A DNA stretch of 20,000 nucleotides from the IMG/VR virus record IMGVR_UViG_3300046171_000179; one strand, 5' to 3'. Numbering within the stretch: position 1 is the stretch's first letter; each line of letters opens with the position of its first letter. This DNA comes from an uncultured virus (IMG/VR IMGVR_UViG_3300046171_000179) (lineage: Duplodnaviria; Heunggongvirae; Uroviricota; Caudoviricetes; Crassvirales). The notes beneath the pieces are model-generated. The model was given only the letters and a program-made list of their open reading frames with translations. It had not been told where the DNA came from and did no database searches. Below, in pieces: positions 4,705 through 13,157 of this stretch. The translations under genes and the position numbers were made by a program.

Positions 4705-4850
4705 ATAAATAATTTTTTACCTAATATTAAAGGACTAGCATCTTTGTTATGATTAACTTCATAATGACTATCAAACTCTTTAATTAATATAGGTTTGTTT
4801 TTAAATCTTCTAGGATATTTCTCTAGTATATATTGTTTTAATTTATCCAT
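4701..4850 (-). CDS. Small hypothetical protein (49 aa)
   Basis: Hand translation MDKLKQYILEKYPRRF...GKKLFI; overlaps both neighbours. Confidence 0.6.
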   Translation of the reverse strand: MDKLKQYILEKYPRRFKNKPILIKEFDSHYEVNHNKDASPLILGKKLFI

Positions 4851-4980
4851 AATAAACTGTTATACATAATTCCACAAAAGGTAAATAAAAAACATGTTCT
4901 ACAAATGTTTCCTCTGGATAACTTCTCATACCTATGAGCATTCCAGGATATAATCCAACACTAATTTCCCATCCTGTCAT
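4843..4980 (-). CDS. Small hypothetical protein (45 aa)
   Basis: Hand translation MTGWEISVGLYPGMLIGMRSY...ITVYYG; tightly packed in the operon. Confidence 0.6.
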   Translation of the reverse strand: MTGWEISVGLYPGMLIGMRSYPEETFVEHVFYLPFVELCITVYYG

Positions 4981-5164: not shown

Positions 5165-5617
5165 TTATCCTTGCTTCTTTCTTTTTTCTTTGATCAGAAT
5201 CATCGTGTAGTCTACTTCCTTCTGGTTTTGCGGCTTGTAAAGCGTCTTTCCAATCTTGTTTTTCGTGAGCCATAGTTTAAATAATTTCCATCTTATAGGG
5301 AAAGACTCATTAGCCCTTCCCTTACATTCTATTATGTAGTCTTTTCCAACAAAGTCAGGTGTATACTTAATTCCCAACATTTTCTTTTGCCCTCTGTTAG
5401 TATATTCACCCTTTCCGTTCGCTTGTTTTTCAAAAGATTCATTGTTAAAATTAAATCCTTCGATAAGCTGGAAAACTTCATTTTCATATCCTTCAAATAA
5501 TTTGTTTTTTTTAAGAGCCATATAAGTATATCTCTCTAAACCTGATGCAAAGTTAATACCATCATAAGTAATTTTCTTAGATTGTACTGGTCCTTTTTTT
5601 CTAGATCTTTTTTTCAT
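5165..5617 (-). CDS. PD-(D/E)XK endonuclease, T7 endonuclease I-like / Holliday junction resolvase-like
   Basis: FASGLE...YE...YTPDF...IIECKG pattern. Confidence 0.8.
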   Translation of the reverse strand: MKKRSRKKGPVQSKKITYDGINFASGLERYTYMALKKNKLFEGYENEVFQLIEGFNFNNESFEKQANGKGEYTNRGQKKMLGIKYTPDFVGKDYIIECKGRANESFPIRWKLFKLWLTKNKIGKTLYKPQNQKEVDYTMILIKEKRKKQG

Positions 5618-6492
5618 TAAGTTCTGTTTGATACAAACGAAGGAGGTGGTCCTGGATCTGGATAATCAGACAAACTGTCTTTTGGATCTGCATAAACAAA
5701 AGTAGGATCATTATCTTTTACAAAAGTTCCATTAACCATTTTACCCGTACGTTTAGATATAACATCATAAGCTGAGCTTATACAACTTTCTATATGTACA
5801 CCTCTCATGTAAGCTAAGTTTGTTAACACCACAACCATGTCTCCTATAGCGTCTATAACCTCAGGTTGATCATTTTTTAACAAAGCTTTAGCTAACTCTC
5901 CTGCCTCTTCTTGAAGCTTAACATATTGTGTAGTAGCATTACCTTTATCATACAAGCCTCTTTCTTTAGCCCATTGTCTTATTTTTTCAAACATTTTCAT
6001 AGGTTTTTTCTCACAACCTTGTTTTTGAAAAGGACCAGCTTCGTGCATGGCTTTGTTATAAACATAACAACGGTTATTATTAAACATAGATGTTTTAACG
6101 TTATCTAATATCCACTCTATTTTATCTGTAGCATTTATATTTACAGTTCCGTGTGGTGTTTCCCATTGTAAATCACCTAAAAATCTACCATCAATATCTT
6201 CTTTAGATATAGCAAATGTAGTTGTTTGCTCTGTTACGTTTACTTTTTTCATTTCTTTATTAAATAATTTATCATAAGGTTTCATATCTACTTTATAGCC
6301 TAGATCTTTCTGTAAAGTTCTTTCAGCTTTAGCAGCTTCTTTTATATCGTCTGTTTCAAATAATATTTCATATTCACCAGGTTTATAACCTTGTTCTTCT
6401 TCAACACGTTTTTTTATGTTTTTAGTACAACCTATTTTTTTACCAAGTATATGATATATTTTATATTTACCTTTTTTTACCTCTATATTCAT
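5617..6492 (-). CDS. MazG-like NTP pyrophosphohydrolase with an N-terminal GIY-YIG-like domain
   Basis: C-terminal IRQWAKERGL...KLQEEAGELAKA...DAIGDMVVVL (EExxE...D all-alpha NTP-PPase motif); N-terminal YKIYHI...KIGCTKNIKKR...AE. Confidence 0.8.
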   Translation of the reverse strand: MNIEVKKGKYKIYHILGKKIGCTKNIKKRVEEEQGYKPGEYEILFETDDIKEAAKAERTLQKDLGYKVDMKPYDKLFNKEMKKVNVTEQTTTFAISKEDIDGRFLGDLQWETPHGTVNINATDKIEWILDNVKTSMFNNNRCYVYNKAMHEAGPFQKQGCEKKPMKMFEKIRQWAKERGLYDKGNATTQYVKLQEEAGELAKALLKNDQPEVIDAIGDMVVVLTNLAYMRGVHIESCISSAYDVISKRTGKMVNGTFVKDNDPTFVYADPKDSLSDYPDPGPPPSFVSNRT

Positions 6493-6494
6493 GT

Positions 6495-6833
6495 TTAATC
6501 TTTATATAGTTCAATAACGTAATAAATATTATTTTTACCTTTAACTATAGCCTCTCCTATTTTAGGATATATACTATAGTTGTATCTATATATATTATCA
6601 TTGTTATATTGATAATCAATTAAAGCGTTTGAATCAGAACTTGATTTAAAACTGCTTTTAACTTTACCATAATATGGCGTGTAATATATATCATTATATG
6701 ATTTACCAACTATTACAGCGTCTTGTACTCGTTCTTGGTAAAAGTCATCATATATATCTATAGTTGAATAACTATAATCTGCTTGAAATTGAGCAAATGT
6801 AAATATTGGGAGTAGTAATAATAATAGTTTCAT
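6495..6833 (-). CDS. Secreted/periplasmic hypothetical protein with Sec signal peptide
   Basis: MKLLLLLLPIFTFA|Q signal peptide with Gln at +1. Confidence 0.7.
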   Translation of the reverse strand: MKLLLLLLPIFTFAQFQADYSYSTIDIYDDFYQERVQDAVIVGKSYNDIYYTPYYGKVKSSFKSSSDSNALIDYQYNNDNIYRYNYSIYPKIGEAIVKGKNNIYYVIELYKD

Positions 6834-6838
6834 ATTTT

Positions 6839-7090
6839 TTAATTTTCATTGTTACGATTAATCATAGCTTCTTCTATCTCATCTTGTAAACATCTTTTAG
6901 CTGCTTCAAGATATAATATAGCGTCCATCATCTCTTCTTGAACGTCAATAATAAATCTATTAAGATCTTTATCTTCACCCTTGATCTCTTCCATCATGGT
7001 TGCACCATATTTCTTTTGACCTGTTAAACTGCGTTGGTCCATTTTTTTTAATACAGTCTGTACTATTTCGTCTTTTGTTTCTATTTGCAT
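6839..7090 (-). CDS. Small all-alpha NTP-pyrophosphatase (MazG-superfamily)-like protein
   Basis: GQKKYGAT...VQEEMMDAILYLE pattern; start moved to the ATG at 7090 (MQIETK), 4 nt after the upstream stop. Confidence 0.6.
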   Translation of the reverse strand: MQIETKDEIVQTVLKKMDQRSLTGQKKYGATMMEEIKGEDKDLNRFIIDVQEEMMDAILYLEAAKRCLQDEIEEAMINRNNEN

Positions 7091-7094
7091 ATTA

Positions 7095-7733
7095 TTATAT
7101 TTTATTGTTATAAAGATGTAAATTGTGTGCGTAATGATAATATTCTCCAACGTCTACAGATACTCTATCTGCAACCATTTTTTGTAGATATGAAAAACAG
7201 TATTGATCAATACAAAAGCCAAACCAGAGATCATTAGATCGCATCAGAACAGCCATGTTTAGTTTGTTATTCAATATAGTAAACTGAACAGCATAAGTAC
7301 AAGGAGTATCCTTACGATATAAGGCATGTTCTTTACCATCGTAAATACTTATAGCTGCGTGCCTAGTATCTTTATCATGTTTTAACTTAGCTATAACATA
7401 ATCTAATTGATAGTTACGTTCCCATTGATATCCATAATTAGAATTAACATGACGATCTATAGACATACGCTCCCATATAGCAGGTACTTTGCCATATAAC
7501 TCTCCAAGCTTATCAATATTATTATCACCTGATAGATACCACTTCCATTCAGCTTCAGCATAATCTATATTAAAGTTTCTTTTTTCATTAGTTATAATAT
7601 TATCTAATGGATCAGATAAAGTAAAACCAACATTAAATAAAGCTTTAGTATCGCCAAAGTTTACACCGTCAGATATTATCTTGTGATAAAAATAATTAAA
7701 AGCATCGTTAGCACAGTGAAATTTAGTTTTCAT
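7095..7733 (-). CDS. Thymidylate-synthase-family enzyme, dCMP hydroxymethylase/methyltransferase-like
   Basis: AEWKWY, VNSNYG, DTRHA, catalytic PC, MRSNDLWFGFCIDQ, NLHLY; Asp where ThyA has the dUMP-specifying Asn. Confidence 0.85.
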   Translation of the reverse strand: MKTKFHCANDAFNYFYHKIISDGVNFGDTKALFNVGFTLSDPLDNIITNEKRNFNIDYAEAEWKWYLSGDNNIDKLGELYGKVPAIWERMSIDRHVNSNYGYQWERNYQLDYVIAKLKHDKDTRHAAISIYDGKEHALYRKDTPCTYAVQFTILNNKLNMAVLMRSNDLWFGFCIDQYCFSYLQKMVADRVSVDVGEYYHYAHNLHLYNNKI

Positions 7734-8025
7734 AAAATGATATTAAGTATTTAAATATAATTGCACTAAAACATAGATAATAAAACAAACCAACAATTTT
7801 AGATATATTATAATATAAAGAATAGTATTTACTTTTTAGCATTATTGTTTCTAAATTAAATAGAATAAATAATAATATACTAAATAATATTATTGCAGGT
7901 TTCAAACCATTAACTTGTCTTAAATCTACATATATAATCAATGATGTTACTGTAAATATAATAATAATTATTGAAAATAAAAAGTTTTTTAAGCTTAAAT
8001 AATTAAACTTTCTTCTGTTTATCAT
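7723..8025 (-). CDS. Hypothetical membrane protein (about 3 TM)
   Basis: Three hydrophobic stretches; very AT-rich; overlaps both neighbours. Confidence 0.55.
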   Translation of the reverse strand: MINRRKFNYLSLKNFLFSIIIIIFTVTSLIIYVDLRQVNGLKPAIILFSILLFILFNLETIMLKSKYYSLYYNISKIVGLFYYLCFSAIIFKYLISFYEN

Positions 8026-8305: not shown

Positions 8306-10015
8306 CTATCCTTCCCAAGGCATTGAATCTAACTCTTGTTGATACGGTATGTAGTCGCCTGAGTCTTTATTCCATTTAAAGTGTGCCTCTGCTTGGTTTT
8401 CTCCAAGGTTTTGAAACTTAACTTTAAGTACTTTAACCTTAACTGTTTTATTAGTGTAATTCCTATGAACAAGAAGCCCGTGATAACTAGCATCATACCA
8501 CTCACCACCTCCTTTAATAGAATACATTGTCGGTTCATCCATTGTTCCATCATCTTTCTTATACATTTTAGTTGGGTGAGCTACAACAATAACAAGTACA
8601 TCATGCTTTTTTGCAAAAGCTTCTATACGTGTTAAGTATTCCATCGTTGCATCAGGTATACTCATTGCACTAGCTCCGTTCATTTTTACTTTATTATATG
8701 GATCTATAACTAAACACTTTATACCTTTACGTTTAACTAATTCAGCACCTTTGTTTAGCACAGAATCAAGATCATATCTTTCATTTTCTATAAAGTAAAA
8801 GTTATCATCTACTAGTTCTGTAACTTGATTCCACTTATCTGTACCTATATCTTCTTTCTTAGGCATCCAACCTCCTATCTTACGTATTAATTTATGAGTA
8901 TGTAAGAATGTAGGTTTGTTCTCTGGTGAAGCAAATGCTGTTTTCCAGCCGTACTTCATTTGGTAACCCACCACCATTCGATCAACAAAATCAGACTTCC
9001 CACTGCTAGGAACGCCTGTAACGGTGATGAATTGCCCTGTGTAAGTAGAGAATATGCTATCAAAGTTATCAAGACCGACTTGATAACCAGGTTTAAAACC
9101 TTCATGAATAAATTCTTGTAGTTCATCATTTACATCTTTTAAGGTTACTACATTTTCAAGAGGAACAGGACTAGCTGTATCAACAAGACGCTTGAGCATA
9201 GTATTGCCGTAGCGTAACATATATTCATTAGCATCTTTACAGTCGTTAAAGTCAACTGTATAACATACCTCTGCTCCGAACCGTCTAATGAGTTCTTGCT
9301 GTAGATTTTGTCCTGCTTCATCTTTGTCAACTGCAATGATAATTTTGGATTTGTCATCGAAATATTCAATGCAATTATCAAGGTAATCAAGGTTAAGGCG
9401 GTTAAGAGTAGCTCCGTTTGGTACACTGACCACACTGTCGATCTTAGAATCCACAAAAGATAAAGCATCCATTTCGCCTTCCACAATAACAACATAATCA
9501 CGGCCAATAGTACTATCAATATTATAGAATACTTTTTCGGCACCTTTAACAAGTTTAAAGTTTTTTCTACCATCTCTATATTTTATATTTATAAGTTCGT
9601 TATTAATAAAATAATTAAATTGAATAGTGTTCTCAACTTTAGAGGTCTGTGGCATCCACTCAGAACCTTCAGATATTCTCATCTTAATAAGTGTTCGTTG
9701 TGAAATGCCTCTGTCCTCAAACCATTTAACAGCTCTATCGCTTATAAGTACATTATTATGCCATTCAGGTTTTGTATATACTTTATTTACATCTCCTTTA
9801 CGTTGAAAGGTATGTAACTGAAATACCTCATCACAATTCATACAAGTACCAAGACCACGTTCCCAATCATACATAGCACATTTTGCTTTACGATTCTCAG
9901 GTTTTCTATCAGCAGAGCAAAGAGGACAAGTGCCCTCTTTTTTCCCTACTTCAAGATCATACTGATTGAACTGGTCAATAGTAAATCCGTTGATCTCTGT
10001 ATTGTTAATTGTCAT
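8306..10015 (-). CDS. Bifunctional primase-helicase (T7 gp4/Twinkle type)
   Basis: Zn-binding CPLC...CMNC; TOPRIM IVEGEMDALS and DKDEAG; Walker A GVPSSGKS; Walker B LVIDP; VAHP and KVKF SF4 motifs. Confidence 0.95.
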   Translation of the reverse strand: MTINNTEINGFTIDQFNQYDLEVGKKEGTCPLCSADRKPENRKAKCAMYDWERGLGTCMNCDEVFQLHTFQRKGDVNKVYTKPEWHNNVLISDRAVKWFEDRGISQRTLIKMRISEGSEWMPQTSKVENTIQFNYFINNELINIKYRDGRKNFKLVKGAEKVFYNIDSTIGRDYVVIVEGEMDALSFVDSKIDSVVSVPNGATLNRLNLDYLDNCIEYFDDKSKIIIAVDKDEAGQNLQQELIRRFGAEVCYTVDFNDCKDANEYMLRYGNTMLKRLVDTASPVPLENVVTLKDVNDELQEFIHEGFKPGYQVGLDNFDSIFSTYTGQFITVTGVPSSGKSDFVDRMVVGYQMKYGWKTAFASPENKPTFLHTHKLIRKIGGWMPKKEDIGTDKWNQVTELVDDNFYFIENERYDLDSVLNKGAELVKRKGIKCLVIDPYNKVKMNGASAMSIPDATMEYLTRIEAFAKKHDVLVIVVAHPTKMYKKDDGTMDEPTMYSIKGGGEWYDASYHGLLVHRNYTNKTVKVKVLKVKFQNLGENQAEAHFKWNKDSGDYIPYQQELDSMPWEG

Positions 10016-12380: not shown

Positions 12381-13157
12381 TTAATCCTGATATATTTTTA
12401 AATTTTTTGCAGAGTACTCATGTACTTTTGACTGCGAGCGTATACCATTAGTAGAAACATAGTAAGCTAACTCATTTAAAGCATCTTCATTGGATCTTAA
12501 TCTTTTTAAGAGCCTTTGTTTTTGCTTTTTTACACTTTCCATGTTGCCACCATAGTGTTTAGCAATATCAGCTATTTTTTTAGGTTTAGAATAAATATCA
12601 TCTAAACCATAAAACATTTGCATCATGCCTGAATACTTAGGTATATATTTTTTTAACCATCCTATAAGGTAATCGCCTAGTTTATCATGCTCATAATTAT
12701 ATACGTCATCTTCAACCATAGAGATTACATCGCTATCAAACCATTGAGGAAATAATACAGATATAAAACCAAATCCATTTGTATGTCTCTTTTTATCTTT
12801 ATTATTCCAAATGCCTTTTATAGGTCTACCAGATCCATCGACATTTTCTTTTATTCTATCTCCAACAATACCTTTAATACTGATACTCAAGAACTTACTA
12901 ACTGTTTTATTCTTGTCTAATTTTGATTCTAACTTATTTATATAGTTCCAATCAATATTACTCCAAGCTGTTAGTAATGCTAAATATGCCTCTTGATTTA
13001 GATCATTAATATTCATGACACCAATAGCTGAATAATCTTTTGAATAACTATTTGCTATTTTAGTTGCCATCTTAAAATAATCAGAAGGTATATTAGATTT
13101 TATATTATTAACTGTTTGCCGGTTGATAGCATAGATTTTCTTATTAAAATTTTTCAT
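12381..13157 (-). CDS. Phage-encoded sigma-70-like transcription factor
   Basis: Region 2-like DLNQEAYLALLTAW; region 4 HTH-like YGL...IADIAKHYGGNMESVKKQKQRLLKRLR. Confidence 0.75.
   Translation of the reverse strand: MKNFNKKIYAINRQTVNNIKSNIPSDYFKMATKIANSYSKDYSAIGVMNINDLNQEAYLALLTAWSNIDWNYINKLESKLDKNKTVSKFLSISIKGIVGDRIKENVDGSGRPIKGIWNNKDKKRHTNGFGFISVLFPQWFDSDVISMVEDDVYNYEHDKLGDYLIGWLKKYIPKYSGMMQMFYGLDDIYSKPKKIADIAKHYGGNMESVKKQKQRLLKRLRSNEDALNELAYYVSTNGIRSQSKVHEYSAKNLKIYQD

Follow-up and report, generated by a model that had tools for sequence, protein, structure and literature searches.

The question posed by this locus is what a phage gene of the thymidylate synthase fold makes: thymidylate, or a modified cytosine nucleotide and, if so, which one. 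The gene lies in a 20,000-nucleotide stretch (the window) of an uncultured virus placed in the Crassvirales (IMG/VR record IMGVR_UViG_3300046171_000179), which has a GC content of 31% and belongs to a phage genome. An initial annotation had proposed a cytosine-modification cassette, in which a thymidylate synthase homologue acting on deoxycytidine monophosphate (dCMP) is accompanied by two MazG-family pyrophosphatases. The explanation that fits best, and which we consider probable, is a dCMP hydroxymethylase module of the T4 gp42 type that would place 5-hydroxymethylcytosine in the phage DNA and is one of two interchangeable alleles found across a large group of marine Flavobacteriia podoviruses. 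Its features are as follows.

7095-7733, minus strand: thymidylate-synthase-fold protein, 212 residues; predicted dCMP 5-hydroxymethylase from the hydroxymethylase clade (PF00303, PDB matches, residue table)
7206-7208, minus strand: Asp176, equivalent to E. coli Asn177 and T4 Asp179; dCMP specificity (sequence and alignment)
7308-7310, minus strand: Asp142, three residues ahead of the catalytic Cys145, equivalent to E. coli Leu143 and T4 Asp145; hydroxymethylase marker (alignment)
7434-7442, minus strand: Ser98-x-Tyr100, equivalent to T4 Ser94 and Tyr96; the other half of the published hydroxymethylase signature (alignment)
6839-7090, minus strand: small two-helix protein, 83 residues, from a family without known function; imported jointly with the synthase (homologues, model, clade identities)
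5617-6492, minus strand: 291-residue fusion of a T5orf172/GIY-YIG-like domain (about residues 9-76), a conserved middle (84-150) and a MazG-type nucleoside triphosphate pyrophosphatase (165-260) (Pfam, PDB, fold)

The open reading frame (ORF) at 7095-7733 reads RSNDLWFGFCIDQ, with VNSNYG and YAEAEWKWY elsewhere, as first described, and matches Pfam PF00303 with an E-value of 5e-24. Among solved structures, MilA (PDB 5b6d, E 3e-18) and T4 gp42 (1b49, E 2e-14) both rank above every ThyA. Residues were compared by aligning the synthase with E. coli ThyA, T4 gp42, RB69 gp48, the Xp12 methylase, the Kuttervirus enzyme, VPE25 and both BF503P2 homologues. The catalytic set of the fold is complete (Cys145, Arg165, Ser166, Asp168, His206 and Tyr208), and the protein is identical to T4 gp42 at Glu62, Trp87, Ser98, Tyr100, Arg124, Asp142, Cys145, Thr146, Arg165, Ser166, Asp168, Asp176, His206 and Tyr208. 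Asp176 aligns with gp42 Asp179 at the ThyA Asn177 site, as the initial annotation had stated, and the NSNYG motif that it had named for gp42 is present there by alignment. According to the available part of PMC13326640, N177D confers dCMP use, L143D/E counters methylation and D169N marks hydroxylases; that of PMC6400193 gives Asp145, Ser94 and Tyr96 as the T4 hydroxymethylase signature and reports that D145N abolishes the activity of gp42. The signature residues are invariant in all 79 homologues counted in a set of 80 loci selected by synthase, the remaining locus being incomplete, and in the best 120 of at least 8000 protein matches to the synthase, so the signature is not a matter of chance.

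None of the ThyA features Asn177, Leu143, His147, Trp83 and C-terminal tail is found in the protein. Asp176, Asp142, Thr146 and Met90 occupy the four positions, and only four residues follow the Tyr208 equivalent, compared with 55 in ThyA, 61 in the Xp12 enzyme and 28 in gp42. An ordinary thymidylate synthase, mis-read from one residue, would accord with the PF00303 match and with 'thymidylate synthase' annotations, as well as with the absence of any other ThyA-fold gene type from all 17 near-complete hydroxymethylase-type contigs, two of which carry this one twice, and with ThyX being found in none of 15 near-complete genomes. The five independent features, however, all point to gp42, and this explanation seems to us exceedingly improbable.

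A dCMP-specific C5-modifying enzyme at 7095-7733 is well supported by these residues. Where the initial annotation allowed either a 5-methyl or a 5-hydroxymethyl product, Asp142, Ser98 and Tyr100, Asp176, the retained Asp168 and the short C-terminus, which leaves no lid, predict a hydroxymethylase rather than a methylase, with 5-hydroxymethyl-dCMP as product. A methylase, giving 5-methylcytosine DNA or, via deamination, thymidine monophosphate (dTMP), could use Asp176, which permits dCMP, and the Xp12 methylase itself has Asn rather than Leu at 143. A dCMP methylase would, however, combine Asp177 with a non-acidic residue 143 and a long tail, whereas here residue 143 is Asp142 and the tail has four residues; Ser98/Tyr100 and Met for Trp83 also fit a hydroxymethylase, and the lineage discarded a true ThyA-like methylase type for this gene, as described below. 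The dCMP methylase of Xanthomonas phage Xp12 and ThyA N177D share Asp at 177 with the synthase, but in Xp12 residue 143 is Asn, the tail is long and genes for dihydrofolate reductase (DHFR) and a deaminase are adjacent, none of which is true here. A methylase is accordingly a reading to which we attach very little likelihood. The route from dCMP through 5-methyl-dCMP to dTMP, an alternative offered by the initial annotation, was rejected as unlikely since dCMP deaminase and DHFR were each found in 0 of 40 related contigs, with T4 and Xp12 scoring positive and Xp12 having both beside its methylase; one of the 40 contigs (G053) has no synthase, and a search for its relatives found none.

Other enzymes of the fold can be distinguished in the same way. 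The flavin-dependent 5-hydroxy-dCMP (5hodCMP) synthases RB69 gp48 and DLP3 gp80, as treated in the available part of PMC13326640, resemble the window synthase in Asp 177, an acidic residue 143 and a short tail, but their diagnostic D169N is missing from it, Asp168 being kept where RB69 gp48 has Asn. The Kuttervirus enzyme differs in having Asn at 177. Streptomyces MilA, a CMP hydroxymethylase and the top-scoring PDB match, has Asp at both positions, but Ala176 and Lys133 where the window synthase has Ser166 and Arg124, the deoxyribose type according to the available part of PMC5175136.

T4 gp42 (PDB 1b49/1b5e and 6a9a/6a9b) is matched at every signature position (D179, D145, S94, Y96, C148, D171 and S169), and the likeness extends to a short C-terminus and a linked pyrophosphatase, in T4 the gp56 dCTPase/dUTPase. 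The window synthase differs in its length of 212 residues, in its tail of 4 residues rather than 28 and in having His for Arg124. Its pyrophosphatase is of the MazG/PRA-PH type and fused to a GIY-YIG-like domain, unlike gp56, and T4 has the gp1 kinase and glucosyltransferases, whereas no kinase, glucosyltransferase or polymerase was recognised in the phage group of the window. The window also comes from a Flavobacteriia podovirus in which the synthase is interchangeable with a methylase allele.

The closest cultured homologue is gp42 of Bacteroides phage BF503P2 (OP172671), with 46% identity and the same signature. The BF503P2 genome differs in carrying a carbamoyltransferase (E 4e-62), a kinase-like gene (a weak match), a dUTPase, PolA and a second synthase homologue, and its cluster of synthase, carbamoyltransferase, kinase and dUTPase corresponds by gene content to the 5-carbamoyloxymethylcytosine type in the available part of PMC8670742. 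This region (L081:14651-20681) includes two Asp177/Asp143 synthase homologues, one of them without the conserved Glu58 and Trp80 equivalents. The same part of that paper, which describes MetaGPA, reports that PF00303 with Asp177, PF01503 and ligase domains occur on contigs with modified cytosine. A search for motifs in the supplements of PMC8670742 and PMC13326640 gave no match, though their alignments may be images and the family may be covered there. Literature searches, in whose coverage subscription papers are mostly missing, found no paper on this phage family or on BF503-type phages.

Other members of the family carry a different synthase at the same site. In 74 loci chosen by primase alone, the synthase and the MazG gene are both present in all 63 with at least 3.5 kb downstream, and Asp177 is found in 70 of 70 synthases. 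Seven of these belong to the window's subclade; the other 63 are a different protein of 260-310 residues as called, with Leu143, a full tail and, in 61, His147. The one copy compared with E. coli ThyA shows 43% identity to it, and identity to the window synthase is 23-30%. The 63 ThyA-like synthases are predicted dCMP methylases and a natural counterpart of ThyA N177D; L177:6434-7264 is an example (Leu143, full tail) in a genome without DHFR or deaminase. A 129-kb contig (G060) that carries both alleles, the methylase copy being split, is probably two genomes joined and was excluded from every count. The features that bear on the exchange are these.

6840-8009, no strand assigned: imported block of small gene, synthase and a 100-residue hydrophobic ORF (7723-8025) (no DNA match to methylase-type relatives)
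5617-5712, minus strand: C-terminal tail of the MazG fusion, a remnant (scar) of the deleted methylase-type small gene (tail match, DNA gap)
8306-10015, minus strand: primase-helicase; flank, assigns the phage to the methylase clade
5165-5617, minus strand: Holliday-junction-resolvase-like gene; flank of methylase-clade type (phrog_190)
6495-6833, minus strand: 112-residue ORF with hydrophobic N-terminus; variable insert of the recipient background

A quick primase tree of 68 rows of at least 450 residues gave two clades, each with SH-aLRT support of 100: one of 38 hydroxymethylase-type rows, the other of 28 methylase-type rows together with the window and L006. Placing all hydroxymethylase-type rows in one group was rejected (approximately unbiased test, p 0.006, on a 22-row subset picked after the tree was seen). 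The median identities (%) of the window genes to the methylase and hydroxymethylase clades, respectively, are 83 and 65 for the primase, 84 and 64 for the resolvase, 86 and 83 for NrdB and 61 and 56 for the MazG fusion (best 83 and 61), with 75 and 54 for its GIY-YIG part and 69 and 75 for the MazG domain alone (best 91 and 83). The order is reversed for the synthase (28 and 68) and the small gene (39 and 72). At the DNA level, blastn matches to the methylase-type loci L125, L141 and L127 end at 6839-6846 and return near 8010, and those to the hydroxymethylase-type L008, L014 and L025 cover about 6853-7734, in L025 just 7090-7734.

The gene order is synthase, MazG, small gene in 60 of 63 methylase loci and 59 of 70 hydroxymethylase loci, the rest being incomplete, and synthase, small gene, MazG in all eight members of the window's subclade. 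In all eight of these switched genomes the best match of the MazG tail is the tail of the methylase-type small protein of L140, a score that none of 200 shuffles reached. At nine clade-diagnostic columns of the small gene the eight switched genomes have the hydroxymethylase state at all nine; the MazG domain has no such column, and the switched MazG genes are dispersed among methylase-type ones in the tree. These sequence comparisons establish the window lineage as a recombinant, with a methylase-clade background into which the predicted hydroxymethylase and the small gene were imported. As the MazG tail is the scar of a deleted small gene, the swap ran from methylase to hydroxymethylase. The small gene sorts with the synthase and the MazG gene does not, and we infer from this one event that the small gene, rather than MazG, tracks the modification type: it would have to fit the synthase, a constraint from which MazG would be free. 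The enzyme class and pre-replicative cytosine modification are known; added here are the direction of the swap, the co-import of the small gene with its scar, and the palindrome signal described below. The locus amounts to a natural experiment: a single site is occupied by either of two synthases that are not orthologous and should, by prediction, yield different bases, and a lineage is caught after the switch.

The small gene, which the exchange singles out as the likely allele-matched partner, had been taken for the second MazG-family pyrophosphatase; of that pair the gene at 5617-6492 stands, through PF01503, PF03819 and its fold, but no link of the small gene to the superfamily appeared by sequence, profile or fold. 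Its start was set at 7090 from homologues, and the model has helices at residues 8-36 and 43-82, the monomer being a generic hairpin (pTM 0.38). The protein has an EExxD-like motif, QEExxD..Y and GxxKYG are conserved in 126-127 of 127 sequences, and the family comprises 3354 clusters at 50% identity (E 0.001). Profile searches of the PDB with 56 and 105 sequences gave no match and one chance match, Pfam just a weak EncFtn-like match, PHROGs unknown-function families only, and hhalign against the MazG fusion a probability of 1%. Foldseek against the viral set found nothing at E 0.001, VIA-align only coiled coils (best Z 6.2), and none of the Atlas neighbours has a Pfam family. The small gene was not found in G054 (92% complete), although that genome has the synthase. 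The protein is a candidate allele-matched nucleotide enzyme.

The MazG domain of the fusion matches PF01503 (E 6e-6), PF03819 (E 2e-4) and PDB 1vmg (E 1e-7), with Z-scores of 10.4-8.1 across twelve MazG-type chains, and its EExxE...ExxD acidic motif (Glu195, Glu196, Glu199, Glu211, Asp214 and Asp218) is invariant in 57 aligned sequences. The fold matches span dCTPases, PRA-PH and dGTPase alike. The initial annotation, correct as to the MazG domain, had missed the first half of the protein, which matches PF10544 (T5orf172) above the cut-off (E 5e-6) and has T5orf172 neighbours in the Atlas; Tyr10, Tyr13, Gly21, Arg29 and Glu57 of this GIY-YIG-like domain are kept in 133 of 138. No GIY-YIG chain is among the listed fold matches of the whole protein, the lists being filled by the MazG domain. 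In four loci of the small-phage background the MazG domain occurs without the GIY-YIG part, and in one close relative (L003:2894-3755) the fusion is present as two separate ORFs. T4 EndoII, which prefers DNA with unmodified cytosine, may offer a parallel for the GIY-YIG part; a domesticated homing endonuclease is as possible as an EndoII-like role. In T4, segF adjoins gene 56.

If the cytosine of the phage is modified, restriction sites that contain it need no avoidance, and palindrome counts may therefore give an indirect sign. The measure was the minimum observed/expected ratio over 12 C-containing four-base palindromes, with a cut-off for strong avoidance of 0.1 that was set after the first data. 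It is 0.50-0.75 in all 17 family contigs with either allele, none of which shows strong avoidance (G062, 63% complete, was excluded), and among 10 Bacteroidota phages that lack a ThyA-fold gene, five of which were covered partly, 9 have 0.05 or less; the Fisher p of 2e-6 for 0/17 against 9/10 is overstated, the genomes being related. The 20-kb window itself gives 0.51, and partial sequences of T4, Xp12 and VPE25 give 0.36, 0.40 and 0.73. Genomes added later all fit, G061 (0.58) and G064 (0.61) with the methylase allele, G059 (0.05) and MW202828 (0.00) with none. MW202828, the nearest synthase-less relative, has ThyX and has lost GATC and CCGG. Little discrimination came from six-base palindromes or from dinucleotide ratios. 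The missing avoidance is indirect support for modified DNA, and to that extent for the cytosine replacement as anti-restriction that the initial annotation had suggested, but neither a kinase nor a polymerase was recognised.

The module might instead reshape nucleotide pools, draining deoxycytidine triphosphate (dCTP) and poisoning host replication or a dCTP-depletion defence, with the modified nucleotide barely or not in the DNA and the virion mostly plain cytosine. This would suit the lack of a recognised kinase or polymerase and the frequency of the MazG and small-gene families in phages without the synthase. The relaxed avoidance in all 17 genomes that carry one or the other allele, the loss of sites in MW202828 and the independent retention of Asp177 by both alleles argue against it, and we regard it as very unlikely.

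The remaining question is whether the predicted hydroxymethyl group is left bare. In several backgrounds homologues with the same signature have transferase neighbours that need a hydroxymethyl acceptor, which supports the hydroxymethylase reading: besides the carbamoyltransferase of BF503P2, the VPE25 homologue lies two genes from an annotated beta-glucosyltransferase, and this synthase type also occurs in 12 loci (of the 80) that come from smaller phages, downstream of a gene for a pyridoxal phosphate (PLP) enzyme, nine of them with a weak T4-glucosyltransferase match below the cut-off and DUF6378. These 12 loci (L019, L020, L035, L047, L049, L054, L060, L062, L064, L068, L079 and L080, in phages of about 30 kb) share a cluster of a PF00291 PLP enzyme, a 300-residue gene of unknown function, a glucosyltransferase-like gene (weak), DUF6378 and then hydroxymethylase and MazG, a candidate for an undescribed cluster hypermodifying hydroxymethylcytosine. 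In the window no glycosyltransferase or kinase had been seen, and a scan of its 35 ORFs agrees. No kinase family and no conserved transferase came up in Pfam scans that covered, from 10 hydroxymethylase-type genomes, 101 representatives of protein clusters plus 150 of 152 singletons (70-900 residues) and, from five methylase-type genomes together with the 12 small-phage loci, another 117 proteins.

An unrecognised phage or host transferase could nevertheless modify the base further on the DNA after 5-hydroxymethyl-dCMP is made, as in T4 or the carbamoylating phages. This would be favoured by the transferase neighbours in other backgrounds, by the many conserved small genes without a family, and by a cluster, present in 3 of 10 hydroxymethylase-type genomes, in which a gene weakly resembling GT29 accompanies JmjC, cupin and methyltransferase genes. 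However, no transferase family is conserved across the 10 genomes scanned, the GT29-like cluster is not in G001, the closest near-complete relative, and the allele replaced in this lineage was a methyl one, which provides nothing for a transferase to act on, the import being just about 1.2 kb; we consider further modification very unlikely. The GT29-like cluster (G017, G018 and G023; L121:5315-8450, L110:12622-13653) is distant from the synthase.

In the preferred mechanism, unglycosylated 5-hydroxymethylcytosine would be made before replication. Cys145 would add to C6 of dCMP, with methylene-tetrahydrofolate supplying the carbon, and Asp142 would activate water instead of hydride transfer to give 5-hydroxymethyl-dCMP. 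Host kinases would probably phosphorylate this and the host polymerase probably incorporate the product during replication, giving phage DNA with the bare modified base for much or all of its cytosine, which would escape restriction. The MazG domain, the small protein or both may degrade dCTP (and dUTP), with the dCMP going back to the synthase. A lineage of the methylase clade gained the predicted hydroxymethylase and the small gene, kept the GIY-YIG/MazG gene and deleted the old small gene, a swap presumably driven by host enzymes that cut 5-methylcytosine DNA.

A bolder version, tentative and in our view doubtful as a whole, makes the synthase and small gene a swappable two-gene switch of the whole genome between 5-methylcytosine and bare 5-hydroxymethylcytosine via host kinases and polymerase. 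The small protein would then found a family of modification-matched nucleotide enzymes, either a gate telling dCTP from its 5-methyl and 5-hydroxymethyl forms or a stand-in for the kinase, and the GIY-YIG/MazG protein would be a one-gene equivalent of EndoII and gp56 that spares any C5-substituted cytosine. 5-Hydroxymethylcytosine is a known shield of DNA against host nucleases. If the preferred mechanism holds, a large ocean phage family (at least 8000 scored synthase matches) would have modified cytosine although no kinase, transferase or polymerase was recognised in it, which would bear on restriction of Flavobacteriia phages, methylome calls in marine viromes and routine thyA annotation.

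Several observations weigh against a hydroxymethylase module that replaces cytosine. In the synthase, His125 stands where a second phosphate-binding Arg is expected, and residue rules of this kind are imperfect, one study having confirmed five of seven predicted methylases. Neither accessory gene is specific to base replacement: the small gene is present in elemoA and MW202828, neither of which has a ThyA-fold gene, and the MazG family is common among phages that give no hint of base replacement (1101 records, with Staphylococcus phage K and phages of S. thermophilus among them). As for the small gene tracking the synthase, an unsampled donor in which the two genes are adjacent would account for the joint import, and the old small gene may have been lost through redundancy alone. 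The PF21448 dNMP kinase was found in 0 of 30, by a model for which only T4 was positive and which also missed Xp12, VPE25 and BF503P2; PolA and PolB were each found in 0 of 15 genomes, the PolB result being weak as its model missed phi14:2 and crAss001, which encode PolB. In the available part of PMC13326640, related hydroxylases in E. coli without their own kinase give trace incorporation only; with no kinase recognised here, replacement may be partial. Among the palindrome counts, BF503P2 avoids CTAG (0.00) and GATC (0.09), partial avoidance of CATG and GATC is seen in G054 and G055 (0.2-0.3), and Cellulophaga phage phi18:3, without a ThyA-fold gene, avoids nothing (0.63). Hosts differ, and a scarcity of restriction systems in the host would produce the same counts. 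Phage phi18:3 has a MazG-domain homologue and may use another protection.

Beyond the module, a Pfam scan shows that the window encodes a primase-helicase, ERF, a PDDEXK exonuclease, a class Ia ribonucleotide reductase and an ATP-dependent ligase. The related IMG/VR contigs measure 60-70 kb and encode a crAss-type muzzle protein, a P22-like portal and GroEL/GroES. By terminase, Flavobacterium elemo phages (45%) and Cellulophaga podoviruses (36%) come closest among cultured phages and MW202828 (62%) among deposited records, from which we infer a host among the Flavobacteriia. Fifteen near-complete genomes of 62-72 kb (G001, G016, G018, G021, G036, G040 and others) have no recognisable DNA polymerase and encode a primase-helicase, ligase, ribonucleotide reductase and GroEL/GroES. 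The 112-residue ORF at 6495-6833, without a match in Pfam and PHROG scans, is matched in just 2 of 81 loci and is probably outside the pathway; 6786-6839 of its region resembles the methylase-type L125, L141 and L127. A 45-residue ORF between the resolvase and nrdB (4843-4980, minus strand) has no family and is kept in 63 of 81 loci. A DenV-like pyrimidine-dimer glycosylase match (PF03013; L118:8431-8943) was found in 9 of 10 hydroxymethylase-type genomes and was not seen in G001 or in five methylase-type genomes. One hydroxymethylase-type genome (G022, L114:14290-16152) has a class II ribonucleotide reductase in place of nrdAB. The window also contains a sigma-factor-like gene at 12381-13157 on the minus strand (phrog_351) and, at 44-991 on the plus strand, a lysine/arginine-rich ORF on the opposite strand where the virion region begins.

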